The notes beneath the pieces were generated by a model, which worked only from the letters and a program-made list of their open reading frames with translations, searched no databases and was not told the origin of the DNA. The position numbers were made by a program, and so were the translations under genes. Of a stretch of 43,657 bases of DNA, positions 439 through 35,142 are shown piece by piece. Origin of the DNA: Escherichia coli (GTDB lineage Bacteria > Pseudomonadota > Gammaproteobacteria > Enterobacterales > Enterobacteriaceae); assembly GCF_003334315.1 (NCBI RefSeq), contig NZ_QOWR01000041.1, one strand, 5' to 3'. The stretch's first letter is position 1, and the number at the start of each line of letters is the position of its first letter.

Positions 439-681
439 TTACTCAGTCACTTCCCCTTCCTGGCGGATCTGATTTGCCCAACGTTGGGCAGATTCAGGCA
501 CAGTAAACGCCGGTGAGCGCAGAAATGACTCTCCCATCAGTACAAACGCAACATATTTGCCACGCAGCATCCAGACATCACGAAACGAATCCATCTTTAT
601 CGCATGTTCTGGCGGCGCGGGTTCCGTGCGTGGGACATAGCTAATAATCTGGCGGTTTTGCTGGCGGAGCGGTTTCTTCAT
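439..681 (-). CDS. cedA: Cell division modulator CedA
   Basis: 80-aa product MKKPLRQQNRQIISYVPRTEPAPPEH… recognised as CedA; the ORF track extends 7 codons further upstream. Divergent from katE as in E. coli. Confidence 0.9.
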   Translation of the reverse strand: MKKPLRQQNRQIISYVPRTEPAPPEHAIKMDSFRDVWMLRGKYVAFVLMGESFLRSPAFTVPESAQRWANQIRQEGEVTE

Positions 682-884
682 TACTGGCTTCACTAAACGC
701 ATATTAAAAATCAGAAAAACTGTAGTTTAGCCGATTTAGCCCCTGTACGTCCCGCTTTGCGTGTATTTCATAACACCGTTTCCAGAATAGTCTCCGAAGC
801 GGGATCTGGCTGGTGGTCTATAGTTAGAGAGTTTTTTGACCAAAACAGCGGCCCTTTCAGTAATAAATTAAGGAGACGAGTTCA

Positions 885-3146: not shown

Positions 3147-3149
3147 TGG

Positions 3150-3173
3150 GAGGCGGCGCAATTGCGCCGCCTC
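3150..3173 (+). other. 24-nt perfect palindrome GAGGCGGCGCAATTGCGCCGCCTC, 4 nt after the katE stop (possible terminator or REP-like hairpin)
   Basis: Perfect 10-bp stem with AATT loop read directly from the sequence; no strong T-run follows, so intrinsic-terminator status is uncertain. Confidence 0.4.
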
Positions 3174-3202
3174 AAATGATTTACATAGTGCGCTTTGTTT
3201 AT

Positions 3203-3391
3203 GCCGGATGCGGCGTGAACGCCTTATCCGGCCTACAAAACTGTGCAAATTCAATATATTGCAGGAAACACGTAGGCCTGATAAGCGAAGCGCATCAGGC
3301 AGTTTTGCGTTTGTCAGCAGTCTCAAGCGGCGCAGTTACGCCGCCTTTGTAGGAATTAATCGCCGGATGCAAGGTTCACGCCGCATCTGGC
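3203..3391. repeat. BIME/REP cluster (REP - spacer with tgcaaattcaatatattgcagg - REP, plus a third REP-like unit)
   Basis: GCCGGATGCGGCGTGAACGCCTTATCCGGCCTAC-type REP palindromes at about 3203-3236, 3272-3302 and 3362-3391, typical of enterobacterial intergenic repeats. Confidence 0.8.
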
Positions 3392-3403
3392 AAACATCCT
3401 CAC

Positions 3404-4165
<762 letters not shown>

Positions 4166-5518: not shown

Positions 5519-5622
5519 AATTTCTCCCTTCAGTACAGAATACTGATATCTGGCATATCTGCCCCCCCGGACATAAATAATCCAGCAACAGGACAGATAT
5601 GTGAATTGTCAGGTATAACGAC

Positions 5623-6465
5623 TTACTGATTAAATTCAGTCAATTTCTTACGATAGCTCTTAGGCGTAAAGGACGTTAATTTCTTAAACGTTTTAATAAA
5701 CAAACTCGGGCTACTATAACCGGCCTCAAACGCAATATCCGTCACTGAATAGTTGGTCATTTCCAGTTGTTTTTTGGCAAAATTAATACGGATTTCATTA
5801 ATAATCTGCATTGGCGTTTTGCCATAATATCGTTGAGTCGCTCGCGTCAAATATTCCTGTGATTTGGCTGACAACGCCACCATATTCTCCAGCGCCGATT
5901 CACTGAACTGCTCTTTATCATGCATCTTTTCTACCGTACTTTTCAGCCACTGCGGTACATCATCAATCACCTGTTCTTCGCGGTAATGACGTAAACGGTT
6001 AATGACATAAAAAGTAACCATCTCAACAAACTCTTCCAGCCCTGTTTCACGGAAATTCAATGAAGAAATCACTGTTTCCACATAGGTGAGAAAAGCGTTA
6101 TTGGTCCGGTATACCTGCGAAGCAACAAAGCAATAAGGCAACAACGGCAGGTAATGCTGCTCAAAAAAGCGTTTACTGATCCCAACGTTCAATATGCGCG
6201 TGGCACCAAACTCATAAAAACTTTGATGGTGCGAACCTAACGGAATAAAAACAAAATCGCCCCGTTCCAGTAACACGCGCTTACCGTTAATCTCCTGGAA
6301 ATAACGCCCGGTTAATACCAGAGTAAATTCATAATAGTCGTGCTGATGCAGTCCGCTGATACTCTCAGTTTTGTTATAGATAAACACATGGAAGTTTTTG
6401 CCATTAAACAACTGCTGTTCTCGGGCAGTGGCAATTTCCGGCGCGTTAATCACTGGCTGCATCAT
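5623..6465 (-). CDS. chbR: AraC-family transcriptional regulator of the chb operon
   Basis: 280-aa ORF; C-terminal AraC-type HTH region (…[30 protein letters not shown]…); operon context. Confidence 0.9.
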
Positions 6466-6472
6466 CGACTCC

Positions 6473-6823
6473 TTATGCCTTCAGTTTTTCATGAAGCTCA
6501 ATTAATTCAGTAATCAGTTCACGCGCAAGCATGGACGTCATTAAATGATCCTGAGCGTGGACCAGCACCAGACTCACTTTCATCTTACCTTCGCCCGCAT
6601 CGCCTTCAATCAGTTTCGTCTGTACCAGATGCGCTTCATTCAATGCCATCCGTGACTGATCCATCATGGCTTTTGCTGCGGCAAAATCGCCCTGCTTCGC
6701 CTGTTTCAGTGCCGCATACGCCAGGCTGCGCGCTTGTCCGGAGTTGATGATAAGCCCCATCACCACTTCTTCCAGCTCTTCAGCTTCTGTTTGCGTATCG
6801 GGAATGTTATCGAGATCCATCAT
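6473..6823 (-). CDS. chbA: PTS chitobiose-specific IIA component
   Basis: 116-aa [36 protein letters not shown]… recognised as lactose/cellobiose-family EIIA. Confidence 0.92.
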
Positions 6824-6873
6824 ACATCGTTCCTCTCTTTTCTTACCGGCACGATTACCCGTACCGGCATCGA

Positions 6874-8232
6874 TTAAAATTTCAGGGCGTTAGCGATATC
6901 TTCTTCGCTCTCTTCTTTATCAATCGCATTTTGTGCTTTGTTAGCCACCACAACAAAGGGCAGATAAATTAACGTTGCGATGCCAAGGTTGAAGAGTGCG
7001 ACCAGCAATGCGGCGACGCTACCGTTGGTATTAAAGAAGGCTCCCAGACCGGTTGGCATGGTCCACGGTGCAATATTGGTCACCGGAGGAATAATGCCCA
7101 TGTAGTACGCTGCGAGGGTGATTGCCGCCAGAATCGGTTGTACCAGTACAAACGGGATAAACATCACCGGGTTCATGATAATTGGCAGACCAAACAGAAT
7201 CGGTTCGTTAATCTGGAAGATGCCGGACGGCAGCGCCAGTTTTGCCACCTGACGATAATCAGCACAGCGAGAGGCGATAAAGATAGCCAGGATCAGGCCT
7301 AAAGTCGCACCACTGCCCCCAAGGAAAATAAAGGAGTCCAGCATCGGCTTGGCCCAGATATGGAAGGTCTTACCGGCTGCCAGCGCCGCTTCGACGGAAC
7401 CATATTGCTGATAGGTCGCGATATTTTCCAGCGCCCACGGCGTCATTATGCCGTTGTCCAGTGCGGTCAGCGCCAGCGCGCCATGAATACCGAAGAACCA
7501 GAGCAGTGGAACAAAGATCACATAGGCCCAGCCCACCACGCTACCCAACGATGCCAGTGGAGTTGAGATGGTATCCATAATGATCTGATGGAAGTTGGTG
7601 CCCCAGGTATTCAACGCCCAGGCAATAATCCCCATCACGGAAAGAATAATAAAGCCGGGAATTAATGCCGAGAAGGAACGCGATACTGAAGCAGGTACGC
7701 TGTCGGGCAGTTTAATGACCCAATTGCGGCGGACAATAAAGGTAAACATTTCTGCCACCACCAGGCCAATAATAATCCCGGAGATGATATTCGCCCCACC
7801 TAACCAGTTTGCGCCAACCGCATAGGCCTCACCGACACTATATGGGGTGACGGTCATAAATGCTGCAACGGATAACAACCCAGCCGCCAGCGCATCGACT
7901 TTACGCTCTTCTGCCAGCGCCATGCCAATAAAGAACGGTGCCATTAAAGACATTATCCCTAATGTTCCGTTATATACGTTGCCGCCAATACCTTTCAGAC
8001 CATTAAGTGTTTCAATGGTTGAGGCGTCGAGGCGAATACCTAAGGAATAAAAAAACGACCCCTCCCCAAAGCTTAGAAAAACGTTGTTAATTAATACAAA
8101 CATGGCCCCCACAAGGGTTAACGGCATTAAGCGAATAAAGCCATTTTTGATTGCATTAACGTGTGGCTGCTTTCCTATTTTAACTGCAAAAGGGAGGAGT
8201 ACCTTTTCAAGCGATGCAATAACATTACTCAT
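6874..8232 (-). CDS. chbC: PTS chitobiose-specific IIC permease
   Basis: 452-aa hydrophobic multi-pass ORF between chbA and chbB; recognised as EIIC of the lactose/cellobiose family. Confidence 0.93.
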
Positions 8233-8316
8233 AGAAAAATACCCTTAAAAACCGCAATTTAAATATTGCGGTATTGATTTATGAAATAACTCTTTGACGG
8301 GAAAATTTAAAATAAA

Positions 8317-8637
8317 TTAATTTGCTGCGGCTTTTTTAATCGCTGCAACCGCAGCCTTAAGCACGCCTAAACCATCGACTTTGCCATAAAGCAGCGAGTC
8401 AATTACTTCAACCGGTTTGTTGGGTAACAAACGCTGGATTTCGGGCAACATATAAGCAATCTGCGGCCCTAATAACACGACATCGGCATTCTGACCTTTT
8501 TCACCAGCCAGTGTTTCCGGAAATGCTTCAATAATGACCGGAACTTCATATTTTTCTGCCTGTGCGCGCATTTTTGATACCAGTAAAGAGGTAGACATGC
8601 CCGCAGAACAAAACAGATAAATGTGTTTCTTTTCCAT
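8317..8637 (-). CDS. chbB: PTS chitobiose-specific IIB component
   Basis: 106-aa [32 protein letters not shown]… containing the EIIB active-site Cys loop. Confidence 0.92.
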
Positions 8638-8877
8638 AAAACTGCCCTCATCGACGATTATCTGTCAGCCAGACACTCCGCAAGCCTTAACCTGCTTCCA
8701 TGCTCTGGGTAACTTGCGAAACCAACATGACTTTTGTTGTGGCTGAAAGGAGTATACGGTATAGACCTGAGCAATAGTATTTCTTTGACCTTATAAATTG
8801 TCTCTCCTTGACCTGCGGTTATGACCCTCTTCACATTTCGGGCAAATAATTCGCGAAGATAATTAAGAACTCAGACC
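8638..8877 (-). promoter_or_regulatory. chbB upstream control region, with a candidate NagC/ChbR-type operator around 8845-8865
   Basis: 240-bp AT-rich intergenic region upstream of chbB on the minus strand; contains the imperfect palindrome aataattcgcgaagataatt. Sites not mapped precisely. Confidence 0.35.
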
Positions 8878-8902
8878 AAAAAAAACCGGCGCAATGGCCG
8901 GT
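8878..8902 (-). terminator. Intrinsic terminator downstream of osmE
   Basis: Hairpin ACCGGC-gcaatg-GCCGGT at 8885-8902, followed on the minus strand by a run of 8 T (plus-strand A-run 8878-8885); 34 nt after the osmE stop. Confidence 0.75.
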
Positions 8903-8935
8903 TTCCGTTGTTACTCAAGCTTTCAGACGAAGTGA

Positions 8936-9274
8936 TTACTTCGCAGCCTGTGGATCAGTGTCGTATTCAGCACAGGTCTGATAACCGGAGTTGATGACAT
9001 GTCCGGTATCATCTAACGCGACAAAGTAGGTTTCTGCTTTACCATCACGTTGACCCAGGATGTAGGTCTGGCAAGTACCACGAGCATGGATCATGCTCAC
9101 TTCAGACGAAGGTTTACCCGCAATTTGTGCAACCTGCGCCCGGCTCATGCCTTTTTTGACGTCTTTCACCACAGGCTGTACAAACTGGTCTTTGGTACGA
9201 TCATAAGCCGTACAACCCGCCAGCATGGTTAATACCGCCGCTGCACTCAGAATTCCTGCCATATTCTTGTTCAT
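8936..9274 (-). CDS. osmE: Osmotically inducible lipoprotein OsmE
   Basis: 112-aa [29 protein letters not shown]… with a lipoprotein signal peptide and lipobox LAGC. Confidence 0.92.
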
Positions 9275-9475
9275 ATTCCGTCCTCTTGTTTATCAGCGTG
9301 TTAGATAAGCCTGGAATACATTGGGCGCTTTTTCAAGCCCGTGAACGAAACGGCTCCGCTTTCAGAGGATTCCTGTATGACGTTTTAACCACCATTCAGC
9401 CCGCTGTCGCTTGTCGTTTCAGTAGCAACGGGTTAGCTTTAAGGAAGTTTTGTCTTTTCTGTCTGGAGGGGTTCA

Positions 9476-10303
9476 ATGACATTGCAACAACAAATAATAA
9501 AGGCGCTGGGCGCAAAACCGCAGATTAATGCTGAAGAGGAAATTCGTCGTAGTGTCGATTTTCTGAAAAGCTACCTGCAAACTTATCCGTTCATTAAATC
9601 ACTGGTGCTCGGGATCAGCGGCGGTCAGGACTCCACGCTTGCCGGAAAGCTGTGCCAGATGGCGATTAATGAGCTGCGCCTGGAAACCGGCAACGAATCA
9701 CTGCAATTTATTGCCGTACGCCTGCCCTATGGTGTTCAGGCCGACGAACAAGATTGCCAGGATGCCATTGCCTTTATTCAACCGGATCGCGTATTAACCG
9801 TTAATATCAAGGGCGCGGTATTGGCCAGCGAACAGGCATTGCGGGAAGCAGGCATTGAACTGAGCGATTTTGTCCGTGGCAATGAAAAAGCGCGTGAGCG
9901 GATGAAAGCACAATATAGCATTGCGGGTATGACCAGCGGTGTCGTGGTGGGCACCGATCATGCAGCAGAAGCCATTACCGGATTCTTCACTAAATATGGT
10001 GACGGCGGTACGGACATTAATCCGCTGTATCGTCTCAACAAACGTCAGGGTAAACAGTTACTGGCGGCATTAGCTTGCCCGGAACACCTTTATAAGAAAG
10101 CGCCAACGGCCGATCTGGAAGATGATCGCCCTTCTCTGCCAGATGAAGTGGCACTCGGCGTGACCTATGACAATATCGACGACTATCTGGAAGGGAAAAA
10201 CGTACCTCAACAGGTCGCCAGAACAATAGAGAACTGGTATCTGAAAACCGAACATAAACGCCGTCCGCCAATTACCGTTTTCGATGATTTCTGGAAAAAG
10301 TAA
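9476..10303 (+). CDS. nadE: NH3-dependent NAD+ synthetase
   Basis: 275-aa [34 protein letters not shown]… with the SGGQDS PP-loop motif. Confidence 0.95.
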
Positions 10304-10348
10304 TAATTTGCACATATTGGATTGTGCGAAAAAGAGTAATTTGTTCAC

Positions 10349-10447
10349 GCCGGATGCGGCGTGAACGCCTTATTCGACCTATAAAACTATGCAAATTCAA
10401 TACATTGCAGGAGTCGAATAGGCCTGACAGGCGTAGCACGTCAGACG
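10349..10447. repeat. REP - spacer - REP unit (RIP/BIME-like) between nadE and cho
   Basis: CGCCGGATGCGGCGTGAACGCCTTATTCGACC … tgcaaattcaatacattgcagg … GGCCTGACAGGCGTAGCACGTCAGACG; near-identical in architecture to the unit at 3203-3302. Confidence 0.75.
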
Positions 10448-10532
10448 GTGTAACCTTTGTCATCGACCCGCCTCTTTTTTAATCGCTTCCCGCCTGTTAC
10501 ACTGGATAGATAACCAGCATTCGGAGTCAACA

Positions 10533-12033
<1,501 letters not shown>

Positions 12034-12065
12034 TTAGTGGTGATCAGGCTTTTTTTACAACTGTT

Positions 12066-12147
12066 TGAGAAGAGAAAAGAAAACCGCCGATCCTGTCCAC
12101 CGCATTACTGCAAGGTAGTGGACAAGACCGGCGGTCTTAAGTTTTTT
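12066..12147 (-). terminator. Long interrupted hairpin terminator downstream of spy (potentially bidirectional)
   Basis: CCGCCG…GTGGACA / TGTCCAC…CGGCGG hairpin at about 12082-12134, flanked by T-rich tracts on both strands (ttttcttttc on minus, gtttttt on plus). Confidence 0.65.
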
Positions 12148-12157
12148 GGCTGAAAGA

Positions 12158-12643
12158 TTATTCAGCAGTTGCAGGCATTTTACCTTTTGCCGCTGGACGT
12201 TCTGTCAGACGCTTCTCAAAATTAGCATTAAATTGCTTTTTCTGTTCCGGCGTCAGGATGTTGTAAATTTTGTTCTGGGTTTCCATGTGCGCCAGCATGT
12301 TAGCTTTGCGCTGTTCTTCCATTTTTGCGATCTGCGCTTCAGCTTTTACTTTATCGAAGGTATCGCTGGCAATGATGTCATGCATTGCGCGGCGTTCTTC
12401 CAACGGCGGACGTTTCATCTGGTCACGCTGGCCTTTCATGATTTCGCGGATCTGCTGTTTCTGCGCGTCGGTCAGGTTCAGGTCTTTGAACATCATGTCC
12501 TGATGCGGACCGAACTTGCCTTTGTGGTGCATCATCGGCTTCGCGTCAGCCGGTGCTGCGGTAGTGGTGTCTGCGGCATGGGCCAGGTTAGCCGCGCCAA
12601 GAGCCAGGGTAGAGGCAACAAACAGTGCAGTTAATTTACGCAT
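12158..12643 (-). CDS. spy: Periplasmic ATP-independent chaperone Spy
   Basis: 161-aa ORF MRKLTALFVASTLALGAANLAHAADTTTAAP… with signal peptide and Spy/CpxP-like LTDAQKQQIREIM motifs. Confidence 0.93.
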   Translation of the reverse strand: MRKLTALFVASTLALGAANLAHAADTTTAAPADAKPMMHHKGKFGPHQDMMFKDLNLTDAQKQQIREIMKGQRDQMKRPPLEERRAMHDIIASDTFDKVKAEAQIAKMEEQRKANMLAHMETQNKIYNILTPEQKKQFNANFEKRLTERPAAKGKMPATAE

Positions 12644-12748
12644 ATTCTATATCCTTCCTTTCAGTTATTTATTACGGCTTTCTTAAGTAGCGTGCCGTGT
12701 TGACGAGATTAACTTTACTGACTTTAGCGTCAATTAATCAGAGCAACG

Positions 12749-12769
12749 GTAAAACAATGAAAGTGTAAA
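12749..12769. promoter_or_regulatory. GTAAA direct repeats (CpxR-box-like) in the spy upstream region
   Basis: GTAAAacaatGAAAGtGTAAA read directly; resembles the CpxR GTAAA-N5-GTAAA consensus. Functional assignment is inferred. Confidence 0.4.
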
Positions 12770-12943
12770 AAACACTTTTGCGTCAATTATGGAGAAAAAA
12801 AGAAAATTTGATGGAGAGTGATGAGAGAATATTACAACACGATGATTTCGCAGAGATTATGAAGAACTATACCGGATGACTGGTGATAAATAAAGCAAAT
12901 AACCAGGATTAATCTGTATTAATTTATAAGAAAGCAACTTAAT

Positions 12944-12967
12944 ACCCGCAGAATGATTTCTGCGGGT
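12944..12967 (-). terminator. Putative terminator hairpin downstream of astE
   Basis: ACCCGCAGAatgattTCTGCGGGT hairpin just past the astE stop on the minus strand; the following tract is T-rich but not a clean U-run. Confidence 0.5.
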
Positions 12968-12972
12968 AAGTA

Positions 12973-19036
<6,064 letters not shown>

Positions 19037-20252: not shown

Positions 20253-20418
20253 TTTAGCAGCTCTCCTGGCTCAAACTGGGTCAGGAGAATTAACCTTGAG
20301 AAAAATCAACAAACTGTCAGTAATGATTTGTTGCCTGCCGTCCTTTGTTATACCGTCTCTGCGTTTTTAGTTGTCTGACCACTTCTCTATTATCAAGTTT
20401 GATATAGGAAACTCCACG

Positions 20419-21129
20419 ATGAACGCTGAGCGTAAATTTCTTTTTGCCTGTCTTATTTTTGCGCTGGTCATTTACGCTATCCACGCTTTCGGTTTATTCG
20501 ATCTGCTCACCGATTTACCCCACTTACAGACACTCATCCGCCAGAGCGGATTTTTCGGCTATAGCCTCTATATTCTGTTATTCATCATTGCCACCCTCTT
20601 GCTGTTACCAGGAAGCATACTGGTGATCGCGGGAGGAATAGTTTTTGGCCCGCTCTTAGGGACACTACTCTCATTAATTGCCGCCACGCTGGCCTCCTCG
20701 TGCTCATTCCTGCTGGCGCGCTGGCTGGGACGTGATTTACTGCTGAAATACGTTGGCCATAGCAATACCTTCCAGGCCATTGAAAAAGGCATTGCGCGTA
20801 ACGGTATTGATTTTCTTATTCTGACCCGCTTAATCCCGTTGTTTCCTTACAATATTCAAAATTACGCTTACGGATTAACCACAATCGCCTTCTGGCCTTA
20901 TACCCTTATTTCGGCACTCACGACCCTACCCGGTATTGTTATTTATACCGTGATGGCAAGCGATCTCGCCAATGAAGGCATTACGCTGCGCTTTATTTTA
21001 CAACTCTGTCTGGCGGGCCTGGCGCTGTTTATTCTCGTCCAGCTCGCAAAACTCTACGCCCGACACAAACATGTGGATCTGTCTGCTTCGCGCCGCAGCC
21101 CACTTACTCACCCAAAAAATGAAGGATAG
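20419..21129 (+). CDS. ydjX: DedA/TVP38-family inner-membrane protein
   Basis: 236-aa hydrophobic protein starting MNAERKFLFACLIFALVIYA… with a DedA-type core (GxxxGP…FLLARWLGR). Confidence 0.85.
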   Translation: MNAERKFLFACLIFALVIYAIHAFGLFDLLTDLPHLQTLIRQSGFFGYSLYILLFIIATLLLLPGSILVIAGGIVFGPLLGTLLSLIAATLASSCSFLLARWLGRDLLLKYVGHSNTFQAIEKGIARNGIDFLILTRLIPLFPYNIQNYAYGLTTIAFWPYTLISALTTLPGIVIYTVMASDLANEGITLRFILQLCLAGLALFILVQLAKLYARHKHVDLSASRRSPLTHPKNEG

Positions 21130-21133: not shown

Positions 21134-21811
21134 ATGTTGCAACATTATTCAGTGTCATGGAAAAAAGGACTGGCTGCACTCTGTTTACTGGCTGTTGCTG
21201 GGCTTAGCGGCTGCGATCAACAAGAGAATGCGGCGGCAAAAGTGGAATACGACGGACTTTCGAACAGCCAACCGCTGCGTGTCGATGCCAATAACCATAC
21301 GGTAACCATGCTGGTGCAAATTAATGGTCGTTTCCTCACCGACGACACTCGTCACGGTATTGTGTTTAAAGATGGCTCCAACGGACATAAATCGCTGTTT
21401 ATGGGTTATGCGACCCCGAAAGCATTTTATGAAGCCCTGAAAGAGGCAGGTGGTACGCCGGGCGAAAACATGACGATGGATAATAAAGAAACGACTCATG
21501 TCACAGGCAGCAAACTGGATATTTCGGTCAACTGGCAAGGGGCGGCAAAAGCGTATTCCTTCGATGAAGTGATTGTTGACAGTAATGGCAAGAAACTGGA
21601 CATGCGCTTTGGCGGTAATTTAACGGCAGCAGAAGAGAAGAAAACGGGTTGCCTGGTGTGTCTGGATAGCTGCCCGGTCGGCATCGTCAGCAATGCAACA
21701 TACACTTATGGTGCGGTTGAAAAACGTGATGAAGTTAAATTCAAAGGCAATGCCTCAGTTCTCCCGGCGGATAACACGCTGGCAACGGTTACCTTTAAAA
21801 TCGCCGAATAA
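21134..21811 (+). CDS. ydjY: Putative lipoprotein YdjY
   Basis: 225-aa product MLQHYSVSWKKGLAALCLLAVAGLSGCDQQ… with a lipobox LSGC and a C-terminal CLVCLDSCP cysteine cluster; starts 4 nt after ydjX. Confidence 0.85.
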   Translation: MLQHYSVSWKKGLAALCLLAVAGLSGCDQQENAAAKVEYDGLSNSQPLRVDANNHTVTMLVQINGRFLTDDTRHGIVFKDGSNGHKSLFMGYATPKAFYEALKEAGGTPGENMTMDNKETTHVTGSKLDISVNWQGAAKAYSFDEVIVDSNGKKLDMRFGGNLTAAEEKKTGCLVCLDSCPVGIVSNATYTYGAVEKRDEVKFKGNASVLPADNTLATVTFKIAE

Positions 21812-21825: not shown

Positions 21826-22533
21826 ATGATGATGATGCAATCGCGAAAAATCTGGTACTACCGTATAACCCTCATCATCCTGTTGTTCGCTATGCTGCTG
21901 GCATGGGCGCTGCTTCCCGGTGTCCATGAGTTTATCAATCGCAGCGTTGCGGCGTTTGCCGCCGTGGACCAACAGGGTATAGAACGCTTTATTCAGTCTT
22001 ACGGCGCACTGGCGGCAGTTGTCTCGTTCTTGTTGATGATTTTGCAGGCCATTGCTGCACCGCTACCTGCGTTTTTGATCACCTTTGCCAATGCGTCGCT
22101 GTTTGGCGCGTTCTGGGGCGGCTTGCTGTCGTGGACCAGTTCGATGGCCGGCGCGGCGCTGTGCTTTTTTATCGCCAGAGTGATGGGCCGCGAAGTGGTG
22201 GAAAAATTAACCGGCAAAACCGTGCTTGACAGTATGGACGGCTTTTTCACTCGCTACGGCAAACACACCATTCTGGTCTGTCGGTTATTGCCTTTTGTCC
22301 CTTTCGATCCAATCAGCTATGCTGCCGGTTTGACTTCAATACGTTTTCGCTCGTTTTTTATCGCCACCGGGCTTGGTCAGTTACCGGCAACTATTGTTTA
22401 TTCCTGGGCGGGCAGCATGTTAACAGGCGGTACTTTCTGGTTTGTCACCGGACTGTTTATTCTGTTTGCCCTGACCGTGGTGATTTTTATGGCGAAGAAA
22501 ATATGGCTTGAACGCCAGAAGAGGAATGCCTGA
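21826..22533 (+). CDS. ydjZ: DedA/TVP38-family inner-membrane protein
   Basis: 235-aa hydrophobic ORF (…FIARVMGREVVEKL…), a paralogue of ydjX in the same array. Confidence 0.85.
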   Translation: MMMMQSRKIWYYRITLIILLFAMLLAWALLPGVHEFINRSVAAFAAVDQQGIERFIQSYGALAAVVSFLLMILQAIAAPLPAFLITFANASLFGAFWGGLLSWTSSMAGAALCFFIARVMGREVVEKLTGKTVLDSMDGFFTRYGKHTILVCRLLPFVPFDPISYAAGLTSIRFRSFFIATGLGQLPATIVYSWAGSMLTGGTFWFVTGLFILFALTVVIFMAKKIWLERQKRNA

Positions 22534-23081
22534 TGGGTTTACCGCCGCTTAGCAAAATTCCTTTAATTTTACGTCCACAGGCGTGGCTGCATCGTCGCCA
22601 TTACGGCGAGGTGCTAAGCCCCATTCGCTGGTGGGGGCGGATCCCGTTTATCTTTTATCTGGTGTCGATGTTTGTTGGCTGGCTGGAGCGCAAACGCTCA
22701 CCGCTCGATCCGGTAGTACGATCGCTTGTCAGCGCGCGCATTGCGCAAATGTGCCTGTGTGAGTTTTGTGTGGATATCACCAGTATGAAAGTCGCCGAGC
22801 GCACCGGCAGCAGCGATAAACTGCTGGCAGTGGCTGACTGGCGGCAAAGCCCGCTCTTTAGCGATGAAGAACGGCTGGCGCTGGAGTACGCCGAAGCCGC
22901 AAGCGTAACGCCGCCAACGGTCGATGATGCCCTGCGTACCCGACTGGCTGCGCATTTTGACGCTCAGGCGCTCACCGAACTGACGGCATTGATCGGCCTG
23001 CAAAATCTGTCAGCCCGTTTTAATTCTGCCATGGACATTCCCGCTCAGGGGCTGTGCCGTATTCCTGAAAAACGTTCTTAA
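22533..23081 (+). CDS. ynjA: Uncharacterised protein YnjA (probably AhpD/carboxymuconolactone-decarboxylase-like)
   Basis: 182-aa ORF whose start overlaps the ydjZ stop (TGATG); contains a Cys-rich CLCEFC motif. The family assignment is from memory and not verified. Confidence 0.8.
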   Translation: MGLPPLSKIPLILRPQAWLHRRHYGEVLSPIRWWGRIPFIFYLVSMFVGWLERKRSPLDPVVRSLVSARIAQMCLCEFCVDITSMKVAERTGSSDKLLAVADWRQSPLFSDEERLALEYAEAASVTPPTVDDALRTRLAAHFDAQALTELTALIGLQNLSARFNSAMDIPAQGLCRIPEKRS

Positions 23082-23090
23082 GGAGAGATG

Positions 23091-24257
23091 ATGCGCCATT
23101 GTGGGTGGTTGCTGGGATTGTTATCGCTGTTTTCTCTGGCAACACATGCCAGTGACTGGCAAGAAATTAAAAATGAGGCCAAAGGGCAAACCGTCTGGTT
23201 TAACGCCTGGGGCGGCGATACCGCAATTAACCGCTATCTCGACTGGGTGAGCGGCGAGATGAAAACCCATTACGCTATAAACCTGAAGATTGTCCGTCTG
23301 GCGGATGCCGCAGACGCGGTGAAGCGCATTCAGACCGAAGCCGCAGCCGGACGTAAAACGGGCGGCTCGGTGGATCTGCTCTGGGTGAACGGCGAAAACT
23401 TCCGCACCTTAAAAGAGGCCAATTTATTACAAACGGGCTGGGCGGAGACTCTGCCCAACTGGCGCTATGTCGACACACAGCTGCCGGTGCGGGAAGATTT
23501 TTCTGTGCCGACACAAGGTGCGGAATCGCCCTGGGGCGGCGCACAACTGACGTTTATCGCCCGCCGCGATGTTACGCCACAGCCACCACAAACGCCGCAA
23601 GCCTTACTGGAGTTTGCTAAAGCCAATCCCGGCACGGTTACCTATCCGCGCCCACCGGACTTTACCGGCACGGCGTTTCTTGAACAGTTGCTGATTATGC
23701 TGACGCCCGATCCCGCCGCATTAAAAGAAGCGCCGGACGATGCGACTTTCGCCCGTGTCACTGCTCCCTTGTGGCAATATCTTGATGTGCTGCATCCGTA
23801 TTTGTGGCGCGAAGGAAAGGATTTCCCGCCTTCACCCGCGCGGATGGATGCTCTGCTGAAAGCCGGCACATTGCGCCTGTCGCTGACCTTTAACCCCGCG
23901 CATGCGCAGCAAAAAATCGCCAGCGGCGATTTGCCTGCAAGCAGTTACAGTTTTGGCTTTCGCGAGGGGATGATTGGCAACGTGCATTTCGTCACCATTC
24001 CTGCCAACGCGAATGCCAGTGCTGCGGCGAAGGTAGTTGCCAATTTCCTGCTCTCACCCGATGCGCAACTGCGTAAAGCAGATCCCGCTGTCTGGGGCGA
24101 TCCTTCTGTTCTCGATCCGCAAAAACTGCCTGACGGGCAGCGCGAATCATTGCAATCAAGAATGCCGCAGGATCTGCCGCCGGTACTGGCTGAACCGCAC
24201 GCAGGTTGGGTAAATGCGCTGGAACAAGAATGGCTACACCGTTACGGTACGCATTAA
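23091..24257 (+). CDS. ynjB: ABC transporter periplasmic substrate-binding protein
   Basis: 388-aa product with signal peptide MRHCGWLLGLLSLFSLATHA; RBS AGGAGA precedes it; the start may be 1 codon upstream (23088). Confidence 0.85.
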   Translation: MRHCGWLLGLLSLFSLATHASDWQEIKNEAKGQTVWFNAWGGDTAINRYLDWVSGEMKTHYAINLKIVRLADAADAVKRIQTEAAAGRKTGGSVDLLWVNGENFRTLKEANLLQTGWAETLPNWRYVDTQLPVREDFSVPTQGAESPWGGAQLTFIARRDVTPQPPQTPQALLEFAKANPGTVTYPRPPDFTGTAFLEQLLIMLTPDPAALKEAPDDATFARVTAPLWQYLDVLHPYLWREGKDFPPSPARMDALLKAGTLRLSLTFNPAHAQQKIASGDLPASSYSFGFREGMIGNVHFVTIPANANASAAAKVVANFLLSPDAQLRKADPAVWGDPSVLDPQKLPDGQRESLQSRMPQDLPPVLAEPHAGWVNALEQEWLHRYGTH

Positions 24258-25765
24258 TCTTTTTGCTGTGGGCGATGGTGGCGGTGATTTATGCACCGCT
24301 GATCCCGGCAGCTCTCACGCTGATATCGCCTGCTTTGTCGTTGACACACTGGCAGGCGTTATTTGCCGATCCACAGTTACCGCAGGCATTACTGGCAACG
24401 CTGGTGTCGACAACCATCGCGGCGGTCGGGGCATTGTTGATTGCCCTGCTGGTGATTGTGGCGCTGTGGCCTGGGCCGAAATGGCAGCGTATGTGCGCCC
24501 GTCTGCCGTGGCTGCTCGCCATTCCCCATGTGGCTTTTGCCACCAGCGCCCTTCTGCTCTTTGCTGACGGAGGGCTGCTTTATGACTATTTCCCGTATTT
24601 CACTCCGCCAATGGACCGATTTGGCATCGGTCTGGGCCTCACCCTTGCAGTGAAAGAAAGCGCATTTCTGCTGTGGATCTTAGCAGCAGTATTGAGCGAA
24701 AAATGGCTGTTGCAGCAGGTCATTGTGCTGGATTCGCTGGGCTACAGCCGCTGGCAATGCCTGAACTGGCTGCTGTTGCCCTCCGTCGCGCCTGCGCTGG
24801 CAATGGCGATGCTGGCGATTGTTGCCTGGTCGCTGTCGGTCGTGGATGTGGCAATTATTCTCGGGCCAGGTAATCCCCCGACGCTGGCGGTAATTAGCTG
24901 GCAGTGGTTAACCCAGGGCGACATTGACCAACAAACAAAAGGCGCGCTTGCCAGCCTGCTGTTGATGCTGTTACTCGCCGCCTACGTTTTGCTGAGCTAT
25001 CTGCTATGGCGCAGCTGGCGGCGCACTATTCCCCGCGTAGATGGCGTTCGCAAGCCTGCCACGCCTTTATTGCCGGGCAATACGCTGGCGATTTTTTTAC
25101 CCTTAACCGGTGTGCTGTGTGTGGTTCTGCTGGCGATCCTCGCGGATCAGTCGACGATCAATAGTGAAGCGCTCATCAACAGCCTGACAATGGGGCTGGT
25201 GGCGACATTCATCGCTTTGCTCCTGTTACTGCTGTGGCTGGAATGGGGGCCACAGCGTCGCCAGTTGTGGCTATGGTTGCCCATTTTATTACCTGCTCTG
25301 CCACTGGTGGCGGGCCAGTACACGCTGGCGCTATGGCTGAAACTGGATGGAAGCTGGACGGCGGTGGTCTGGGGGCATCTGCTGTGGGTGATGCCGTGGA
25401 TGCTGTTTATCCTGCAACCCGCCTGGCAGCGCATTGATTCACGGTTAATTTTGATTGCGCAAACACTGGGCTGGTCGCGGGCCAAAATCTTCTTTTACGT
25501 GAAATGCCCACTCATGTTGCGCCCTGTGCTGATTGCCTTCGCGGTGGGATTTGCAGTCGGTATTGCGCAGTATATGCCAACGCTGTGGCTGGGCGCGGGG
25601 CGTTTTCCGACGCTCACCACTGAGGCGGTGGCATTAAGCAGCGGCGGCAGCAACGGTATTCTCGCCGCCCAGGCTTTATGGCAACTGCTATTACCGCTTA
25701 TTATTTTTGCCCTGACCGCGTTAGTCGCAAAATGGGTAGGTTATGTCAGACAAGGACTCCGCTAA
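24230..25765 (+). CDS. ynjC: ABC transporter permease (two-domain)
   Basis: 511-aa multi-pass membrane ORF; overlaps the ynjB 3' end by 28 nt; the start is chosen by length and may be off by a few codons. Confidence 0.85.
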   Translation: MATPLRYALIFLLWAMVAVIYAPLIPAALTLISPALSLTHWQALFADPQLPQALLATLVSTTIAAVGALLIALLVIVALWPGPKWQRMCARLPWLLAIPHVAFATSALLLFADGGLLYDYFPYFTPPMDRFGIGLGLTLAVKESAFLLWILAAVLSEKWLLQQVIVLDSLGYSRWQCLNWLLLPSVAPALAMAMLAIVAWSLSVVDVAIILGPGNPPTLAVISWQWLTQGDIDQQTKGALASLLLMLLLAAYVLLSYLLWRSWRRTIPRVDGVRKPATPLLPGNTLAIFLPLTGVLCVVLLAILADQSTINSEALINSLTMGLVATFIALLLLLLWLEWGPQRRQLWLWLPILLPALPLVAGQYTLALWLKLDGSWTAVVWGHLLWVMPWMLFILQPAWQRIDSRLILIAQTLGWSRAKIFFYVKCPLMLRPVLIAFAVGFAVGIAQYMPTLWLGAGRFPTLTTEAVALSSGGSNGILAAQALWQLLLPLIIFALTALVAKWVGYVRQGLR

Positions 25766-26418
25766 TGCTCTGCGTGAAAAATGTTTCGCTACGTTTACCA
25801 GAAAGCCGCTTGCTGACAAACGTTAACTTTACGGTGGATAAAGGTGACATTGTCACGTTAATGGGGCCGTCTGGCTGTGGAAAATCCACTCTGTTTTCAT
25901 GGATGATTGGTGCACTGGCCGAACAGTTTTCTTGTACAGGTGAGCTATGGCTCAATGAGCAACGGATTGACATCCTACCCACCGCACAGCGTCAGATTGG
26001 CATTCTTTTTCAGGATGCACTGTTATTTGACCAGTTCAGTGTCGGGCAAAATTTACTGCTGGCGCTACCGGCGACACTTAAAGGGAATGCCCGACGTAAT
26101 GCCGTGAATGATGCACTTGAGCGTTCAGGCCTTGAGGGAGCTTTCCATCAGGATCCTGCCACTTTGTCTGGCGGTCAGCGAGCGCGCGTTGCTCTACTAC
26201 GCGCCCTTCTCGCCCAACCAAAAGCGTTACTCCTGGATGAGCCATTCAGCCGTCTTGATGTGGCTCTGCGCGATAATTTTCGCCAGTGGGTGTTCAGCGA
26301 AGTTCGCGCCCTGGCGATCCCCGTCGTTCAGGTAACGCACGATCTCCAGGATGTTCCTGCTGATAGTTCTGTTCTGGATATGGCGCAGTGGTCAGAAAAT
26401 TACAACAAACTGCGATAA
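25765..26418 (+). CDS. ynjD: ABC transporter ATP-binding protein
   Basis: 217-aa product MLCVKNVSLRLPESRLLTNVNFTVDKGDIVTLMGPSGCGKSTL… with Walker A, LSGGQ signature and Walker B; its start overlaps the ynjC stop (TAATG). Confidence 0.9.
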   Translation: MLCVKNVSLRLPESRLLTNVNFTVDKGDIVTLMGPSGCGKSTLFSWMIGALAEQFSCTGELWLNEQRIDILPTAQRQIGILFQDALLFDQFSVGQNLLLALPATLKGNARRNAVNDALERSGLEGAFHQDPATLSGGQRARVALLRALLAQPKALLLDEPFSRLDVALRDNFRQWVFSEVRALAIPVVQVTHDLQDVPADSSVLDMAQWSENYNKLR

Positions 26419-26484
26419 CGCAAAGTTTTTCTCAATGCGTCAGTTCAGAATGGCGCACTCAAAACTACAATGTCGGGATTTTCG

Positions 26485-27792
26485 ATGAAACGTGTTTCTC
26501 AAATGACCGCGCTGGCAATGGCTTTAGGGCTGGCTTGCGCTTCTTCGTGGGCCGCTGAACTGGCGAAGCCTCTTACACTTGACCAGCTTCAACAACAAAA
26601 TGGCAAAGCGATAGATACTCGCCCCAGCGCGTTTTATAACGGCTGGCCACAAACCTTAAATGGCCCTTCTGGTCATGAACCTGCCGCCTTAAACCTCTCT
26701 GCCAGCTGGCTTGACAAAATGAGCACCGAACAGCTCAACGCGTGGATCAAGCAACATAACCTGAAAACCGATGCTCCGGTGGCGCTGTACGGTAATGACA
26801 AAGATGTCGACGCCGTCAAAACGCGACTGCAAAAAGCAGGTTTAACGCATATCTCCATCCTGAGTGACGCGCTAAGCGAACCTTCCCGTCTGCAAAAACT
26901 GCCGCATTTTGAGCAGCTGGTTTATCCGCAATGGCTGCACGACCTGCAACAAGGTAAAGAGGTTACGGCGAAACCTGCCGGTGACTGGAAAGTCATTGAA
27001 GCGGCCTGGGGCGCTCCTAAGCTTTACCTTATCAGCCATATTCCCGGCGCTGACTACATCGATACCAACGAAGTGGAAAGTGAACCGCTGTGGAACAAAG
27101 TTTCTGATGAACAACTAAAAGCGATGCTGGCAAAACACGGCATTCGCCATGACACCACGGTCATTCTGTATGGGCGTGACGTATACGCTGCAGCGCGTGT
27201 GGCGCAGATTATGCTTTATGCTGGCGTGAAAGATGTGCGCCTGCTGGATGGCGACTGGCAAACCTGGTCCGACGCGGGACTGCCTGTTGAGCGCGGAACG
27301 CCACCGAAAGTGAAAGCGGAACCGGATTTCGGCGTGAAGATCCCGGCACAACCGCAGTTGATGCTCGATATGGAACAGGCCCGTGGACTGCTGCATCGCC
27401 AGGATGCATCGCTGGTGAGCATTCGTTCGTGGCCAGAATTTATCGGTACGACCAGCGGTTACAGCTATATTAAACCAAAAGGTGAAATAGCCGGAGCACG
27501 TTGGGGACACGCTGGTAGCGACTCGACGCATATGGAAGATTTTCATAACCCGGATGGCACCATGCGCAGCGCCGATGATATTACCGCTATGTGGAAAGCG
27601 TGGAATATCAAACCAGAGCAGCAAGTTTCATTCTACTGCGGCACCGGCTGGCGCGCGTCCGAAACCTTTATGTACGCACGCGCCATGGGTTGGAAGAATG
27701 TTTCCGTGTATGACGGCGGCTGGTACGAATGGAGCAGCGATCCAAAAAATCCGGTAGCAACCGGTGAACGCGGCCCGGACAGTAGCAAATAA
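26485..27792 (+). CDS. ynjE: Periplasmic multi-domain rhodanese (thiosulfate sulfurtransferase)
   Basis: 435-aa product MKRVSQMTALAMALGLACASSWAAELAK… with signal peptide and C-terminal rhodanese active-site CGTGWR. Confidence 0.9.
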   Translation: MKRVSQMTALAMALGLACASSWAAELAKPLTLDQLQQQNGKAIDTRPSAFYNGWPQTLNGPSGHEPAALNLSASWLDKMSTEQLNAWIKQHNLKTDAPVALYGNDKDVDAVKTRLQKAGLTHISILSDALSEPSRLQKLPHFEQLVYPQWLHDLQQGKEVTAKPAGDWKVIEAAWGAPKLYLISHIPGADYIDTNEVESEPLWNKVSDEQLKAMLAKHGIRHDTTVILYGRDVYAAARVAQIMLYAGVKDVRLLDGDWQTWSDAGLPVERGTPPKVKAEPDFGVKIPAQPQLMLDMEQARGLLHRQDASLVSIRSWPEFIGTTSGYSYIKPKGEIAGARWGHAGSDSTHMEDFHNPDGTMRSADDITAMWKAWNIKPEQQVSFYCGTGWRASETFMYARAMGWKNVSVYDGGWYEWSSDPKNPVATGERGPDSSK

Positions 27793-27800: not shown

Positions 27801-28427
27801 TTACTGACGCTGGAGCGACTTCAGCGTCAGATACCCACTCCACACCCGCGTAAAGGTCGTCATCCAGCACAACGCACCGAAGATCCACGCAAACCACGCA
27901 AACCATGCAGGGAATAAACATCCCAGCACAAACAGTAAGATCGTTTCTGTGCCTTCGGTTAATCCCCCCAGATAGTAAAACGACTTATGTGCATAACCGG
28001 GGTTATCAATCTGATGTTTTGCTGCCAGTGCAGCAAAGGCGAGAAAACTGCTGCCCGTGCCGATAAACGCAAACAACAACCAGCCGCCTGCCAGCGCATT
28101 TTGCTCCGGTGCAGCAAGAATAAAGCCAAACGGCACCAGCGCGTAAAAGAGAAAATCGAGAGAAATATCAAGAAAGCCGCCCGCGTCGGTAAGCTCTCTG
28201 CGCCGCGCCAGCGCACCGTCCAGACCATCAAGCAGCCTGTTCAACAAAATGACGACTAGCGCCGCCAGATACCAGCCCAGCGCCAGAAACGGCAGAGCCA
28301 GTACGCCGATGGCAAATCCCACTAATGTTAAACCATCTGGCGTAATGCCCGGTTTATCAAGAACCCGCACGCATTGATGCAACAACGGTTTAATCCGGGG
28401 ATGAAGATGGCGGTCTAGCACAGGCAC
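27801..28427 (-). CDS. ynjF: CDP-alcohol phosphatidyltransferase-family membrane protein
   Basis: 208-aa ORF with D-G-x2-A-R…G-x3-D-x3-D-like motif (LLDGLDGALARRRELTDAGGFLDISLD); the true start may be the GTG 2 codons in. Confidence 0.85.
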   Translation of the reverse strand: MPVLDRHLHPRIKPLLHQCVRVLDKPGITPDGLTLVGFAIGVLALPFLALGWYLAALVVILLNRLLDGLDGALARRRELTDAGGFLDISLDFLFYALVPFGFILAAPEQNALAGGWLLFAFIGTGSSFLAFAALAAKHQIDNPGYAHKSFYYLGGLTEGTETILLFVLGCLFPAWFAWFAWIFGALCWMTTFTRVWSGYLTLKSLQRQ

Positions 28428-33982: not shown

Positions 33983-35026
33983 TTAACGAATCTCAACCAT
34001 GGCACGACCGCCGCGCGCTGGCACCAGTTCGCCAATTGCCGTCAGTTCAATGCCAAACTCGGCGGCTGTAGCTTTGACCTCATTTTCTGCTTCCGGCATG
34101 ACCGCCAGCAGCAAACCGCCAGAAGTTTGCGGATCACACAGCAGATCGCGCACTTCACGCGGCATTTCACCCATCAGATGACCGTAGCTGGCAAAGTTAC
34201 GTTCAGTGCCGCCAGGTACTGCGCCCAACTTAATGTACTCTTCAACACCGGGGAGTTTCGGGATCGCTTCATAGTCGACGCGTGCCTGCACACCAGCCCC
34301 CTGACACATTTCGCTCAAGTGGCCCAGCAGACCAAAGCCCGTAACGTCGGTCATCGCTTTTACGCCTTCGATGTTGGCAAAGGACGCGCCTGCGATGTTC
34401 ATCCGGCACATCACTTCCGTCGCCAGTCCCTGATGTTCTGGTTTCAACAGTGATTTTTTCTCAGCCGTGGTAAGAACGCCGATCCCCAGCGGTTTCGTCA
34501 GGAACAGTTTGCATCCGGCTTGTGCGGTACTGTTTTTCTTCACCCGCTCGGTCGGTACGATCCCCGTTACCGCCAGACCAAAAATCGGCTCCGGCGCATC
34601 GATGGAGTGACCGCCAGCCAGCGCAATACCCGCCTGACGACATGCATAGCGTCCACCTTCGGTCACTTCGCGGGCAATTTCTGGGGAAAGTTTGTTAATC
34701 GGCCAGCCGAGGATCGCAATCGCCATAATCGGTTTGCCCCCCATCGCGAAGATATCGCTGATGGCGTTAGTCGCCGCAATGCGGCCAAAATCGAAAGGAT
34801 TATCAACGATCGGCATAAAGAAGTCGGTGGTACTGATAACGCTGGTGCCATTGCCCAGATCGTACACCGCCGCATCGTCGCGGGTTTCATTACCCACAAG
34901 CAAATTCGGATCAACAAACTTCGCCTGCTCACTATGCAGGATGGTTTCCAACACTTTTGGGGAAATTTTACAGCCGCAACCAGCTCCGTGGCTGTATTGG
35001 GTCAAACGAATCGAGTTCTCGCTCAT
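33983..35026 (-). CDS. selD: Selenide, water dikinase (selenophosphate synthetase)
   Basis: 347-aa product [30 protein letters not shown]… recognised as SelD; immediately upstream of topB. Confidence 0.95.
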
Positions 35027-35142
35027 GGACATCTCCTGTCAATGCAATCCGGGTATGGTAACCCTCATTCCGTGAAGTGATAAGTGAGAGTGTCTGAATT
35101 CCTGCGCCTTTGCTCACAATCCAGACAGTTTCGCGACAATTA

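Follow-up and report, generated by a model that had tools for sequence, protein, structure and literature searches.

What does a cysteine-bearing lipoprotein do between two membrane proteins of the DedA type? The question is raised by ydjY of Escherichia coli, which lies in the window analysed here, a chromosomal stretch of 43,657 nt (contig NZ_QOWR01000041.1) with the gene order astC-xthA-ydjX-ydjY-ydjZ-ynjA-ynjB-ynjC-ynjD-ynjE-(ynjF). The gene is not new, being annotated in E. coli and having entries of its own in Pfam (PF27149) and NCBIfam (NF040466), and in the literature searched we found no paper that gives YdjY, YdjX, YdjZ or YnjA-D a function. The comparison of ydjY loci presented here reveals that the gene is tightly coupled across phyla to DedA-type membrane proteins of the YdjZ type and to a small membrane module. 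Since YdjY is found beside DedA-type proteins and genes of sulfur, selenium or arsenic metabolism in at least four phyla, it probably helps to pass one of these elements across the membrane. The more specific form of this idea, that YdjY is a thiol-based acceptor handing selenium or sulfane sulfur to the YdjZ/YdjX module, is put forward tentatively, as a possibility that falls somewhat short of probable. The three genes at the heart of the locus are:

20419–21129, + strand: ydjX, membrane protein of the VTT/DedA superfamily (TVP38/TMEM64, COG0398), from the RefSeq annotation
21134–21811, + strand: ydjY, lipoprotein of 225 residues, YdjY domain family (NF040466, PF27149, AlphaFold2 model)
21826–22533, + strand: ydjZ, VTT/DedA protein and conserved partner of ydjY (RefSeq; cross-phylum homologues)

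YdjY is coupled to VTT/DedA proteins across phyla

Eighty fetched loci and eight obtained earlier gave, after deduplication, 84 ydjY loci under 44 taxon labels, the neighbours of which were classified in two ways, with hidden Markov models (HMMs) trained on seed neighbours and through an unbiased clustering of all proteins against all. These loci are not phylogenetically independent, Gemella being heavily sampled, and counts are therefore also given by taxon label. A VTT/DedA gene, as counted with the seed HMM, lies within 8 kb of ydjY in 74 of the 84 loci and under 37 of the 44 labels, and in 54 of the 59 loci having at least 3 kb on both flanks, while the loci that lack one are mostly short contigs. 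The first-pass annotation had considered the placing of such a lipoprotein between DedA genes an unusual pairing; it is instead the most conserved feature of the family. Within E. coli itself a 2.8-kb block with ydjX, ydjY and ydjZ is found in 5425 of 5426 complete genomes.

The VTT protein adjoining ydjY is of the YdjZ type (E 1e-70 to 1e-83 against E. coli YdjZ), with homologues that are 55–58% identical across phyla and 58% identical in one Bacillota metagenome-assembled genome (MAG). The gene directly 3′ of ydjY on the same strand encodes a fusion of a small membrane module with a VTT domain in 39 loci, the free module in 23 and a VTT protein in eight. This module, for which we have coined the name STM, is a four-helix membrane unit of about 130 residues with a W-[LV]-E-M-[RM] motif and no conserved cysteine, and it finds no match in the Pfam annotation or in NCBIfam. 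It is present in 70 of the 84 loci, in 39 of which it is fused N-terminally to a YdjZ-type VTT domain. YdjX-type VTT proteins also recur near ydjY in other phyla, either free or fused to an iron-sulfur (Fe-S) module of the CCG type: in Desulfobacterota and related syntroph MAGs a Fer4/CCG module (HdrD/GlpC-type) precedes the YdjX-type VTT domain in proteins of 550–680 residues. These fusions imply a cytoplasmic N-terminus for the VTT proteins concerned and a redox partner for a protein of the DedA superfamily, and a published survey finds COG0398 DedA proteins most often fused to (MerA-like) pyridine nucleotide-disulfide oxidoreductases. Examples of both arrangements, in the coordinates of the individual loci, are:

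L001 8649–9029, L005 8666–9130, L008 8708–9106 and L003 8947–10119 (N-terminal ~130 residues): STM
L005 9205–10977, and in L022, L027, L028, L046, L056, L082 and L085: CCG-VTT fusions

Two apparent fusions of VTT with YdjY were discounted, P0121 being an E. coli-like YdjX-YdjY read-through and P0200 a fragment. The tight cross-phylum coupling of YdjY to a YdjZ-type VTT protein and STM is directly supported by these observations, and a YdjY-VTT/DedA gene module is proposed on their basis; it is a proposal of this analysis and not an established family.

YdjY is an exported lipoprotein with a predicted orphan fold

RefSeq names the products of ydjX and ydjZ ‘TVP38/TMEM64 family protein’ and that of ydjY ‘lipoprotein YdjY’. 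A ribosome-binding site, AAGGA, lies 7–11 nt 5′ of the ydjY ATG, and the coding sequence opens with the export signal:

21134–21214, + strand: signal peptide ending in the lipobox L-S-G-C27, followed by Asp28 at +2 (direct reading of the sequence)

Residues 1–27, MLQHYSVSWKKGLAALCLLAVAGLSGC, comprise a basic n-region (K10-K11), a hydrophobic core (LAALCLLAVAG) and the lipobox L24-S25-G26-C27, encoded at 21203–21214, and so follow the lipoprotein rule [LVI][ASTVI][GAS]C preceded by basic n- and hydrophobic h-regions. YdjY has been detected by proteomics in E. coli O157, in a study that counts it among the lipoproteins (LSGC/D) and considers the older annotation of 279 residues to be 54 residues too long (PMC3210124); this mis-annotated longer reading frame begins at 20972. 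The lipoprotein prediction of the first-pass annotation is hence supported by sequence rules, RefSeq and published proteomics alike. Among the N-termini of 180 full-length family members, sorted with a crude regular expression, 115 carry a lipobox, 53 are otherwise hydrophobic and about one is a credible Tat signal, and export of YdjY by the Sec/lipoprotein route is directly supported. Aspartate at position +2 of a lipoprotein is the classical residue for Lol avoidance and retention in the inner membrane, and from Asp28 the E. coli protein is predicted to remain in the inner membrane, beside YdjX and YdjZ.

YdjY matches NF040466 with 146.1 bits (cutoff 50) over residues 49–223, on model positions 2–180 of 181, and PF27149 is precomputed on every YdjY homologue. 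The AlphaFold2 model is confident, with a pLDDT of 90.5 for the whole chain and of about 98 for the mature domain, and a Foldseek search of it against AFDB50 returned only members of the same family; sequence matches in the PDB had E values of 0.28 or above. The modelled mature domain thus appears to be an orphan fold, structurally related to nothing beyond its own family, a conclusion directly supported by this search, and it is not the thioredoxin fold of DsbA, ResA or Sco.

The same data bear on the public label ‘4Fe-4S ferredoxin-type domain’ for YdjY, which would have its cysteines ligate an Fe-S cluster. The protein is named a ferredoxin in several sources, its CLVCLDSCP stretch resembles the tail of the CxxCxxCxxxCP motif, and there are weak matches to Pfam Fer4 families and, at E of about 0.3, to Fe-S subunits in the PDB. 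The Fer4 matches, however, lie at E 0.089–0.26 and none is better than 0.089; the motif is CxxCxxxCP, with three cysteines and the wrong spacing, rather than the four-cysteine CxxCxxCxxxCP; and neither a ferredoxin-like fold nor Tat export was found, the signals of the family being of the Sec/lipoprotein type with about one credible Tat exception, as noted above. Those periplasmic Fe-S proteins that are known leave the cytoplasm by way of Tat, in the folded state, and because Sec exports an unfolded chain a cluster inserted in the cytoplasm is disfavoured for YdjY. The label was accordingly rejected, the ferredoxin reading being largely refuted and very improbable.

A conserved cysteine and histidine site

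The YdjY family is small, with 315 clusters at 50% identity found at E ≤ 1e-3 among 1.84 billion representatives, and ranges over Enterobacteria, many Bacillota (Finegoldia, Gemella, Facklamia, Peptostreptococcus, Catonella and Clostridium), Desulfobacterota, Campylobacterota and a spirochaete MAG, with Brachyspira among the AFDB matches. Identity across phyla is 50–60%, and all three motif cysteines are invariant among 25 cross-phylum homologues. A C-terminal cysteine cluster, CLVCLDSCP, had been noticed at the outset; it is indeed present, but rather than at the extreme C-terminus it stands 45 residues before the end, within the last quarter of the chain. The elements concerned are:

21650–21676, + strand: motif C173-L-V-C176-L-D-S179-C180-P, residues 173–181, its conservation assessed in 110 representatives
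21350–21355, + strand: codons of R73 and H74, His74 being near-invariant and R73 covarying with D178

Conservation was counted over 110 diverged representatives clustered at 50% identity. His74 is kept in 105 of these, and within and around the motif the counts are 108 for G172, 102 for C173, 107 for C176, 105 for S179 and 106 for C180; elsewhere G125 (106), F159 (103), G161 (108), N162 (103), N187 (93) and P211 (97) stand out. E. coli YdjY carries the whole G-C-x-x-C-x-x-S-C motif together with His74. The least strict of the cysteines is C173, in whose place several members have S, T, E or D, and its variability reduces the minimal site to C176-x-x-S-C180 plus His74. One such replacement is seen in P0002, an E. 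coli-like YdjY (99% identical) that represents a cluster of 4665 members at 90% identity and reads TGSLVCLDSC (C173S); the serine could stem from faulty assembly or mark a rare variant.

Among 14,878 long-range residue pairs ranked by mutual information with average product correction, a score that takes no account of phylogeny, the pair 73/178 comes first at 0.572, the next standing at 0.343. The residues occupying these positions are R-D in 42 sequences, W-Y in 10, H-Q in eight and I-E in five. As residue 73 neighbours His74 and residue 178 lies in the middle of the cysteine loop, the His74 segment most likely touches this loop. Met113, tried as a possible copper ligand, was rejected since it is not conserved across the 110 representatives.

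The suggestion made from the sequence that the motif serves metal or disulfide chemistry remains plausible and falls short of proof, and is strengthened by the conservation of the cysteines and His74, by the 73/178 covariation and by the thiol, chalcogen and metalloid genes described below. A purely structural disulfide is disfavoured by the odd number of cysteines, by the variability of C173 beside the fixed C176 and C180, by the co-conservation of His74 and by a gene string in Facklamia that includes CcdA-like and ResA-like genes for the export of reductant. A further explanation is that YdjY is a thiol-disulfide oxidoreductase or redox sensor, in which C173-x-x-C176 or C176-x-x-x-C180 is redox-active and serves to oxidise, reduce or sense partners such as rhodaneses on the outer side of the membrane without any atom being carried. 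Spacings of CxxC and CxxxC are typical of redox-active pairs, the CcdA-like and ResA-like genes would suit such a role, and CCG and AhpD-type redox partners lie nearby. However, the CxxC is the less conserved of the two pairs, YdjY lacks a thioredoxin fold, and the tight coupling to VTT/STM, SelD and ArsS would go unexplained, so that this explanation is regarded as improbable.

Sulfur, selenium and arsenic genes recur around ydjY

Beyond the VTT and STM genes, several other families recur in the loci. Rhodanese genes are found near ydjY under 13 labels and most of them encode signal peptides or lipoboxes; orthologues of the E. coli rhodanese YnjE with its CGTGWR loop occur in Campylobacter, Catonella and other Bacillota, YnjE homologues near ydjY score E 1e-55 to 1e-77, and in three proteins (P0151, P0153 and P0189) a rhodanese and YdjY are fused behind one lipoprotein signal. 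Two tandem YdjY-YdjY proteins were also found. CCG proteins, some of them fused to VTT, are seen under 16 labels, and their best NCBIfam match, at 248 bits and under its cutoff, is ‘diclust_near_Sec’ (pyridine nucleotide-disulfide oxidoreductase/dicluster protein). SelD is encoded within 10 kb of ydjY under five of the 44 labels: 63 nt after it in a Syntrophaceae MAG, at 1–4 kb in three other Desulfobacterota and at 2–7 kb in Facklamia, the ydjY gene string of which also includes SelB. YedF is a neighbour under six labels. Families with selenoprotein members that recur near ydjY are ArsS, C-GCAxxG-C-C and a PrdB-like protein. ArsS, identified as ‘arsenosugar biosynthesis radical SAM (seleno)protein’ with 337 bits against a cutoff of 300, follows ydjY at a distance of 63–690 nt in four taxa, and under eight labels it is no more than 5.1 kb away. 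The ArsS loci also encode glycosyltransferases of TIGR04282/04283, C-GCAxxG-C-C (seleno)proteins, an MprF-like flippase domain and a nucleoside hydrolase.

Two rich loci are long strings of genes on the same strand, L080 ~1–16000 in Facklamia and L063 ~2700–11400 in Campylobacter, both of which encode ArsS, TIGR04282/04283, nucleoside hydrolase, two VTT proteins, STM, YdjY and a rhodanese; in Facklamia the string further includes CcdA-like and ResA-like proteins, SelD, SelB and YedF, and a fragment that resembles PrdB. Among the families annotated in these two strings, where many open reading frames are left unannotated, an arsenic methyltransferase was not recognised, and in these anaerobes the ArsS cassette might act on selenium rather than arsenic.

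The cassette invites the alternative that YdjY is a metalloid binder, the three cysteines making up an S3 site at which As(III), Sb(III) or some soft metal (Hg, Cd or Cu) is bound and the protein capturing it outside the cell for uptake into an ArsS-type organoarsenical pathway or handling a product of that pathway. The tight adjacency of ArsS, with its glycosyltransferases and nucleoside hydrolase, agrees with this, as do the three-cysteine sites that are the classical As(III) ligands of ArsR, ArsD and ArsA and the presence of YdjY in Sulfurospirillum and Desulfuribacillus stibiiarsenatis. Against it, C173 is dispensable in several members, leaving a site of two cysteines and a histidine; ArsM-type methyltransferase, ArsB/Acr3 and ArsR were not identified among the annotated families of the rich loci, with the same proviso on unannotated reading frames; E. 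coli has neither ArsS nor the glycosyltransferase genes; and the name of the ArsS family is of cyanobacterial origin, and SelD shares the same Facklamia string. A metalloid binder is accordingly judged doubtful.

Homologues of YnjB (E 1e-55 to 1e-75) occur near ydjY in several Bacillota, where YnjC, YnjD and YnjF-like genes are found too; YnjBCD-type homologues are counted under 11 labels and YnjF-like ones under six; TIGR00374 flippase-like proteins are seen under six labels, a cluster of TIGR04282/TIGR04283 glycosyltransferases with an APH-like kinase under 10, and nucleoside hydrolase under four. All of these count in favour of YdjY being an accessory of a lipid pathway, an outer-face subunit or enzyme in the building and flipping of an unusual phospholipid head group. 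On this account an ABC importer brings the precursor, the kinase, a nucleotidyltransferase, the glycosyltransferases and a YnjF-type transferase synthesise the lipid, its outward movement falls to VTT and MprF-like flippases, and YdjY binds or modifies the head group together with the rhodanese, its Cys3-His site being a catalytic or structural zinc site. Eukaryotic VTT relatives have been reported as phospholipid scramblases, COG0398 proteins are without the residues tied to undecaprenyl-phosphate flipping, and E. coli has kept YnjF and YnjBCD beside the operon. Nonetheless the lipid-type genes are missing from most loci, in which YdjY-STM-VTT persists without them; the rhodanese fusions, the CCG-VTT fusions and the SelD and YedF neighbours are left unexplained; and no lipid-binding fold is recognised in YdjY. 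A role in lipid assembly is for these reasons considered unlikely, if still to be reckoned with.

The E. coli operon and its regulation

In E. coli the counterparts of these neighbours are found mostly downstream of ydjZ:

22533–23081, + strand: ynjA, AhpD/carboxymuconolactone-decarboxylase family with a C-x-C-E-F-C motif (NCBIfam and PDB homologues)
23088–26418, + strand: ynjB, ynjC and ynjD, an ABC importer (binding protein, double permease and ATPase; NCBIfam matches)
26470–27792, + strand: ynjE, exported three-domain rhodanese with the active-site loop CGTGWR (signal peptide and motif)
27801–28427, − strand: ynjF, membrane protein of the CDP-alcohol phosphatidyltransferase family (NCBIfam matches)
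33983–35032, − strand: selD, selenophosphate synthetase (NF002098 at 619 bits)
20296–20309, palindromic: FNR-like site TTGAGAAAAATCAA upstream of ydjX, with one mismatch to TTGAT-N4-ATCAA

The genes from ydjX to ynjD are packed like a single operon, with 4 nt between the ydjX stop and the ydjY ATG and 14 nt between ydjY and ydjZ, one base shared by ydjZ and ynjA (the ynjA start lying on the ydjZ stop) and one by ynjC and ynjD, and with the listed ynjC reading frame overlapping ynjB. The palindrome TTGAGAAAAATCAA is one of three sites in the window with such a match, the total at up to two mismatches not exceeding that expected by chance, and it agrees with the published identification of ydjXYZ-ynjABCD and, separately, of ynjE as direct targets of FNR activation by chromatin immunoprecipitation and expression analysis (PMC3688515).

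The individual products offer further hints. YdjX has weak NCBIfam similarity to UptA. YnjA scores 101 bits, under the cutoff, with the model for a YciW-related (seleno)protein, and its PDB homologues are members of the AhpD/CMD family; a gene in Sulfurospirillum arcachonense considered as its orthologue was set aside, the similarity being at the level of the motif only (E 0.009) and the two proteins being treated as members of the same superfamily. No homologue of solved structure was found for YnjB. A Sec signal peptide is clearly present in the product of ynjE, and its Bacillota orthologues carry lipoprotein signals, although annotations commonly make it a (cytoplasmic) molybdopterin-synthase sulfurtransferase. 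In a 2023 paper YnjE is described as periplasmic, with no detectable thiosulfate:glutathione activity (PMC10215317), and its true acceptor may be a protein such as YdjY. The gene ynjF is an uncertain member of the ydjY module, and the proximity of selD to ydjY in E. coli may be a remnant of linkage or a coincidence.

The G+C content, followed over 22000–25500 of the window, is about 48–49% across ydjX-ydjY and rises to 55–57% across ynjA-ynjC. The high cross-phylum identity of YdjY and YdjZ (50–58%) suggests that the block may have been acquired horizontally. The window also holds two Rfam matches to the ES036 (CssrF) small RNA above the gathering score, at 3237–3279 (55.5 bits) and 10383–10425 (42.9 bits), both on the + strand, which are unrelated to ydjY.

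A tentative model for chalcogen transfer and its parallels

The module as a whole looks like a system for the thiol-based trafficking of selenium, sulfur or possibly arsenic that is built on COG0398 DedA/VTT proteins. In the hand-off tentatively proposed for YdjY, the Cys/His site would bind the chalcogen covalently, as a persulfide/trisulfide or a selenotrisulfide-type adduct, having received the atom from an exported rhodanese (YnjE in E. coli). YdjY would then pass it to the membrane module, formed by YdjZ and YdjX in E. coli with the addition of the four-transmembrane-helix STM in most other taxa, and cytoplasmic thiol or Fe-S disulfide reductases would release it to users such as SelD; candidates for this last step are YnjA in E. 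coli and, elsewhere, the CCG modules, some of them VTT-fused. The CcdA-like and ResA-like genes of Facklamia would supply reductant to the outer face.

Selenium is the most specific candidate for the atom carried on account of the SelD, YedF and SelB neighbours, the neighbouring families rich in selenoproteins and the ‘near Sec’ reductase module. Control by FNR fits selenium too, since the selenoprotein formate dehydrogenases are made under the condition in which FNR is active. Rhodanese-bound selenium has reportedly been observed, and a selenite resistance linked to DedA is likewise said to exist. Sulfane sulfur, which would fit the rhodanese and CCG neighbours equally well, is the main alternative element.

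Several known systems resemble this scheme. The Mer relay has the same layout, with a cysteine protein exported from the cytoplasm, a small protein in the membrane and, on the cytoplasmic side, a reductase of a disulfide-reductase class: MerP is periplasmic with a CxxC, MerT has cysteine pairs in the membrane, and MerA is a cytoplasmic reductase of the disulfide-oxidoreductase family. The MerA-like oxidoreductase fusions reported for COG0398 VTT proteins and the CCG fusions of the ydjY loci extend the likeness. No component is homologous, however: YdjY is not of the HMA fold, VTT/DedA and STM take the place of MerT in the membrane, and neither mer genes nor MerR turned up in the ydjY loci, so that the resemblance would be one of logic only. 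The YeeE/YeeD (TsuA/TsuB) system for thiosulfate uptake and the selenium pair YedE/YedF, the latter proposed from comparative genomics (PMC5322559), likewise combine a membrane protein with a small cysteine protein and are proposed to move sulfur or selenium by cysteine chemistry, and the YedF of this pair is the recurrent ydjY neighbour mentioned above. YeeD and YedF are nevertheless cytoplasmic and TusA-like, whereas YdjY is exported and of a different fold, and the Sulf_transp membrane proteins of YeeE/YedE are unrelated to VTT.

The rhodanese step has its own precedents. Sud of Wolinella works with polysulfide reductase, and ExtH of Geobacter is a rhodanese-like lipoprotein in selenite and tellurite reduction. 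These two proteins and PspE of E. coli exemplify an extracytoplasmic rhodanese carrying sulfane sulfur or selenium to a partner, as proposed here for YnjE, which matches the ExtH model weakly (35.8 bits, under the cutoff). PspE makes periplasmic sulfane sulfur, the entry route of which into the cell is unknown (PMC10215317). None of the three systems has a YdjY-like or VTT component, and YdjY itself is no rhodanese. In the DsbD/CcdA-ResA relay, reducing power from across the membrane reaches a cysteine protein that has been exported, and YdjZ, with its two conserved membrane cysteines, and the Facklamia string are reminiscent of it; yet YdjY lacks the thioredoxin fold, no redox activity is known for VTT proteins, and CcdA-like and ResA-like genes were found near ydjY in that one genus only. 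Finally, the copper chaperones Sco1/SenC, tethered to the membrane outside the cytoplasm, have a CxxxC and a distal histidine, the same ligand set as C176-x-x-x-C180 plus His74 of YdjY. Sco proteins have the thioredoxin fold, however, the only other candidate ligand in YdjY, Met113, is the unconserved residue already discussed, and no copper or cytochrome-oxidase genes occur in the ydjY neighbourhoods.

A number of points weigh against the chalcogen hand-off. All the functional evidence on YdjY is guilt by association, each of the secondary associations is found under only 5–16 of the 44 labels, and these associations point to three elements (S, Se and As). Gemella, Finegoldia and many further loci have YdjY and STM-VTT only. 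In E. coli, STM was not matched by its HMM in any frame of the window, the ArsS and glycosyltransferases of other ydjY loci are absent, and 12.2 kb separate ydjY from selD, which is encoded further downstream on the other strand. The family sequences give no sign of a YdjY with selenocysteine, and the covariation of residues 73 and 178 is, as stated, uncorrected for phylogeny. The conserved cysteines of YdjZ (Cys113 in 31 of 33 sequences and Cys152 in 27 of 33) are not diagnostic, as the protein is highly conserved throughout. An AlphaFold2 model of YdjZ joined to mature YdjY by an artificial (GGGGS)6 linker, from a shallow alignment of 19 same-locus rows, had a pTM of 0.45, both domains being folded with no confident interface. 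The scramblase activity reported for eukaryotic VTT relatives, for its part, fits the lipid pathway better.

Implications for DedA/VTT proteins and selenium biology

The conserved module around ydjY appears to be unreported in the literature searched, in which we found no functional study linking TVP38 with rhodanese or DedA with SelD. In its boldest form, for which the likelihood is low, the proposal would make YdjY, STM and YdjZ/YdjX a dedicated acquisition route for selenium or zero-valent sulfur, in which COG0398 DedA/VTT proteins would serve to translocate chalcogens and not to scramble lipids and would be coupled to disulfide reductases in the cytoplasm, and which would supply, in many anaerobes, the ArsS/glycosyltransferase/SelD cassette; that cassette, if so supplied, could represent a further, undescribed use of selenium.

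The hand-off of selenium or sulfur by YdjY, if true, would bear on the physiological acceptor of YnjE and on the way in which periplasmic sulfane sulfur enters the cell. It would bear equally on the uptake of selenium by bacteria, in which no high-affinity selenium transporter is known (PMC9312934). It would also bear on the bacterial function of the COG0398 DedA/VTT proteins, which a published survey identifies as the closest bacterial relatives of human TMEM41B and VMP1.

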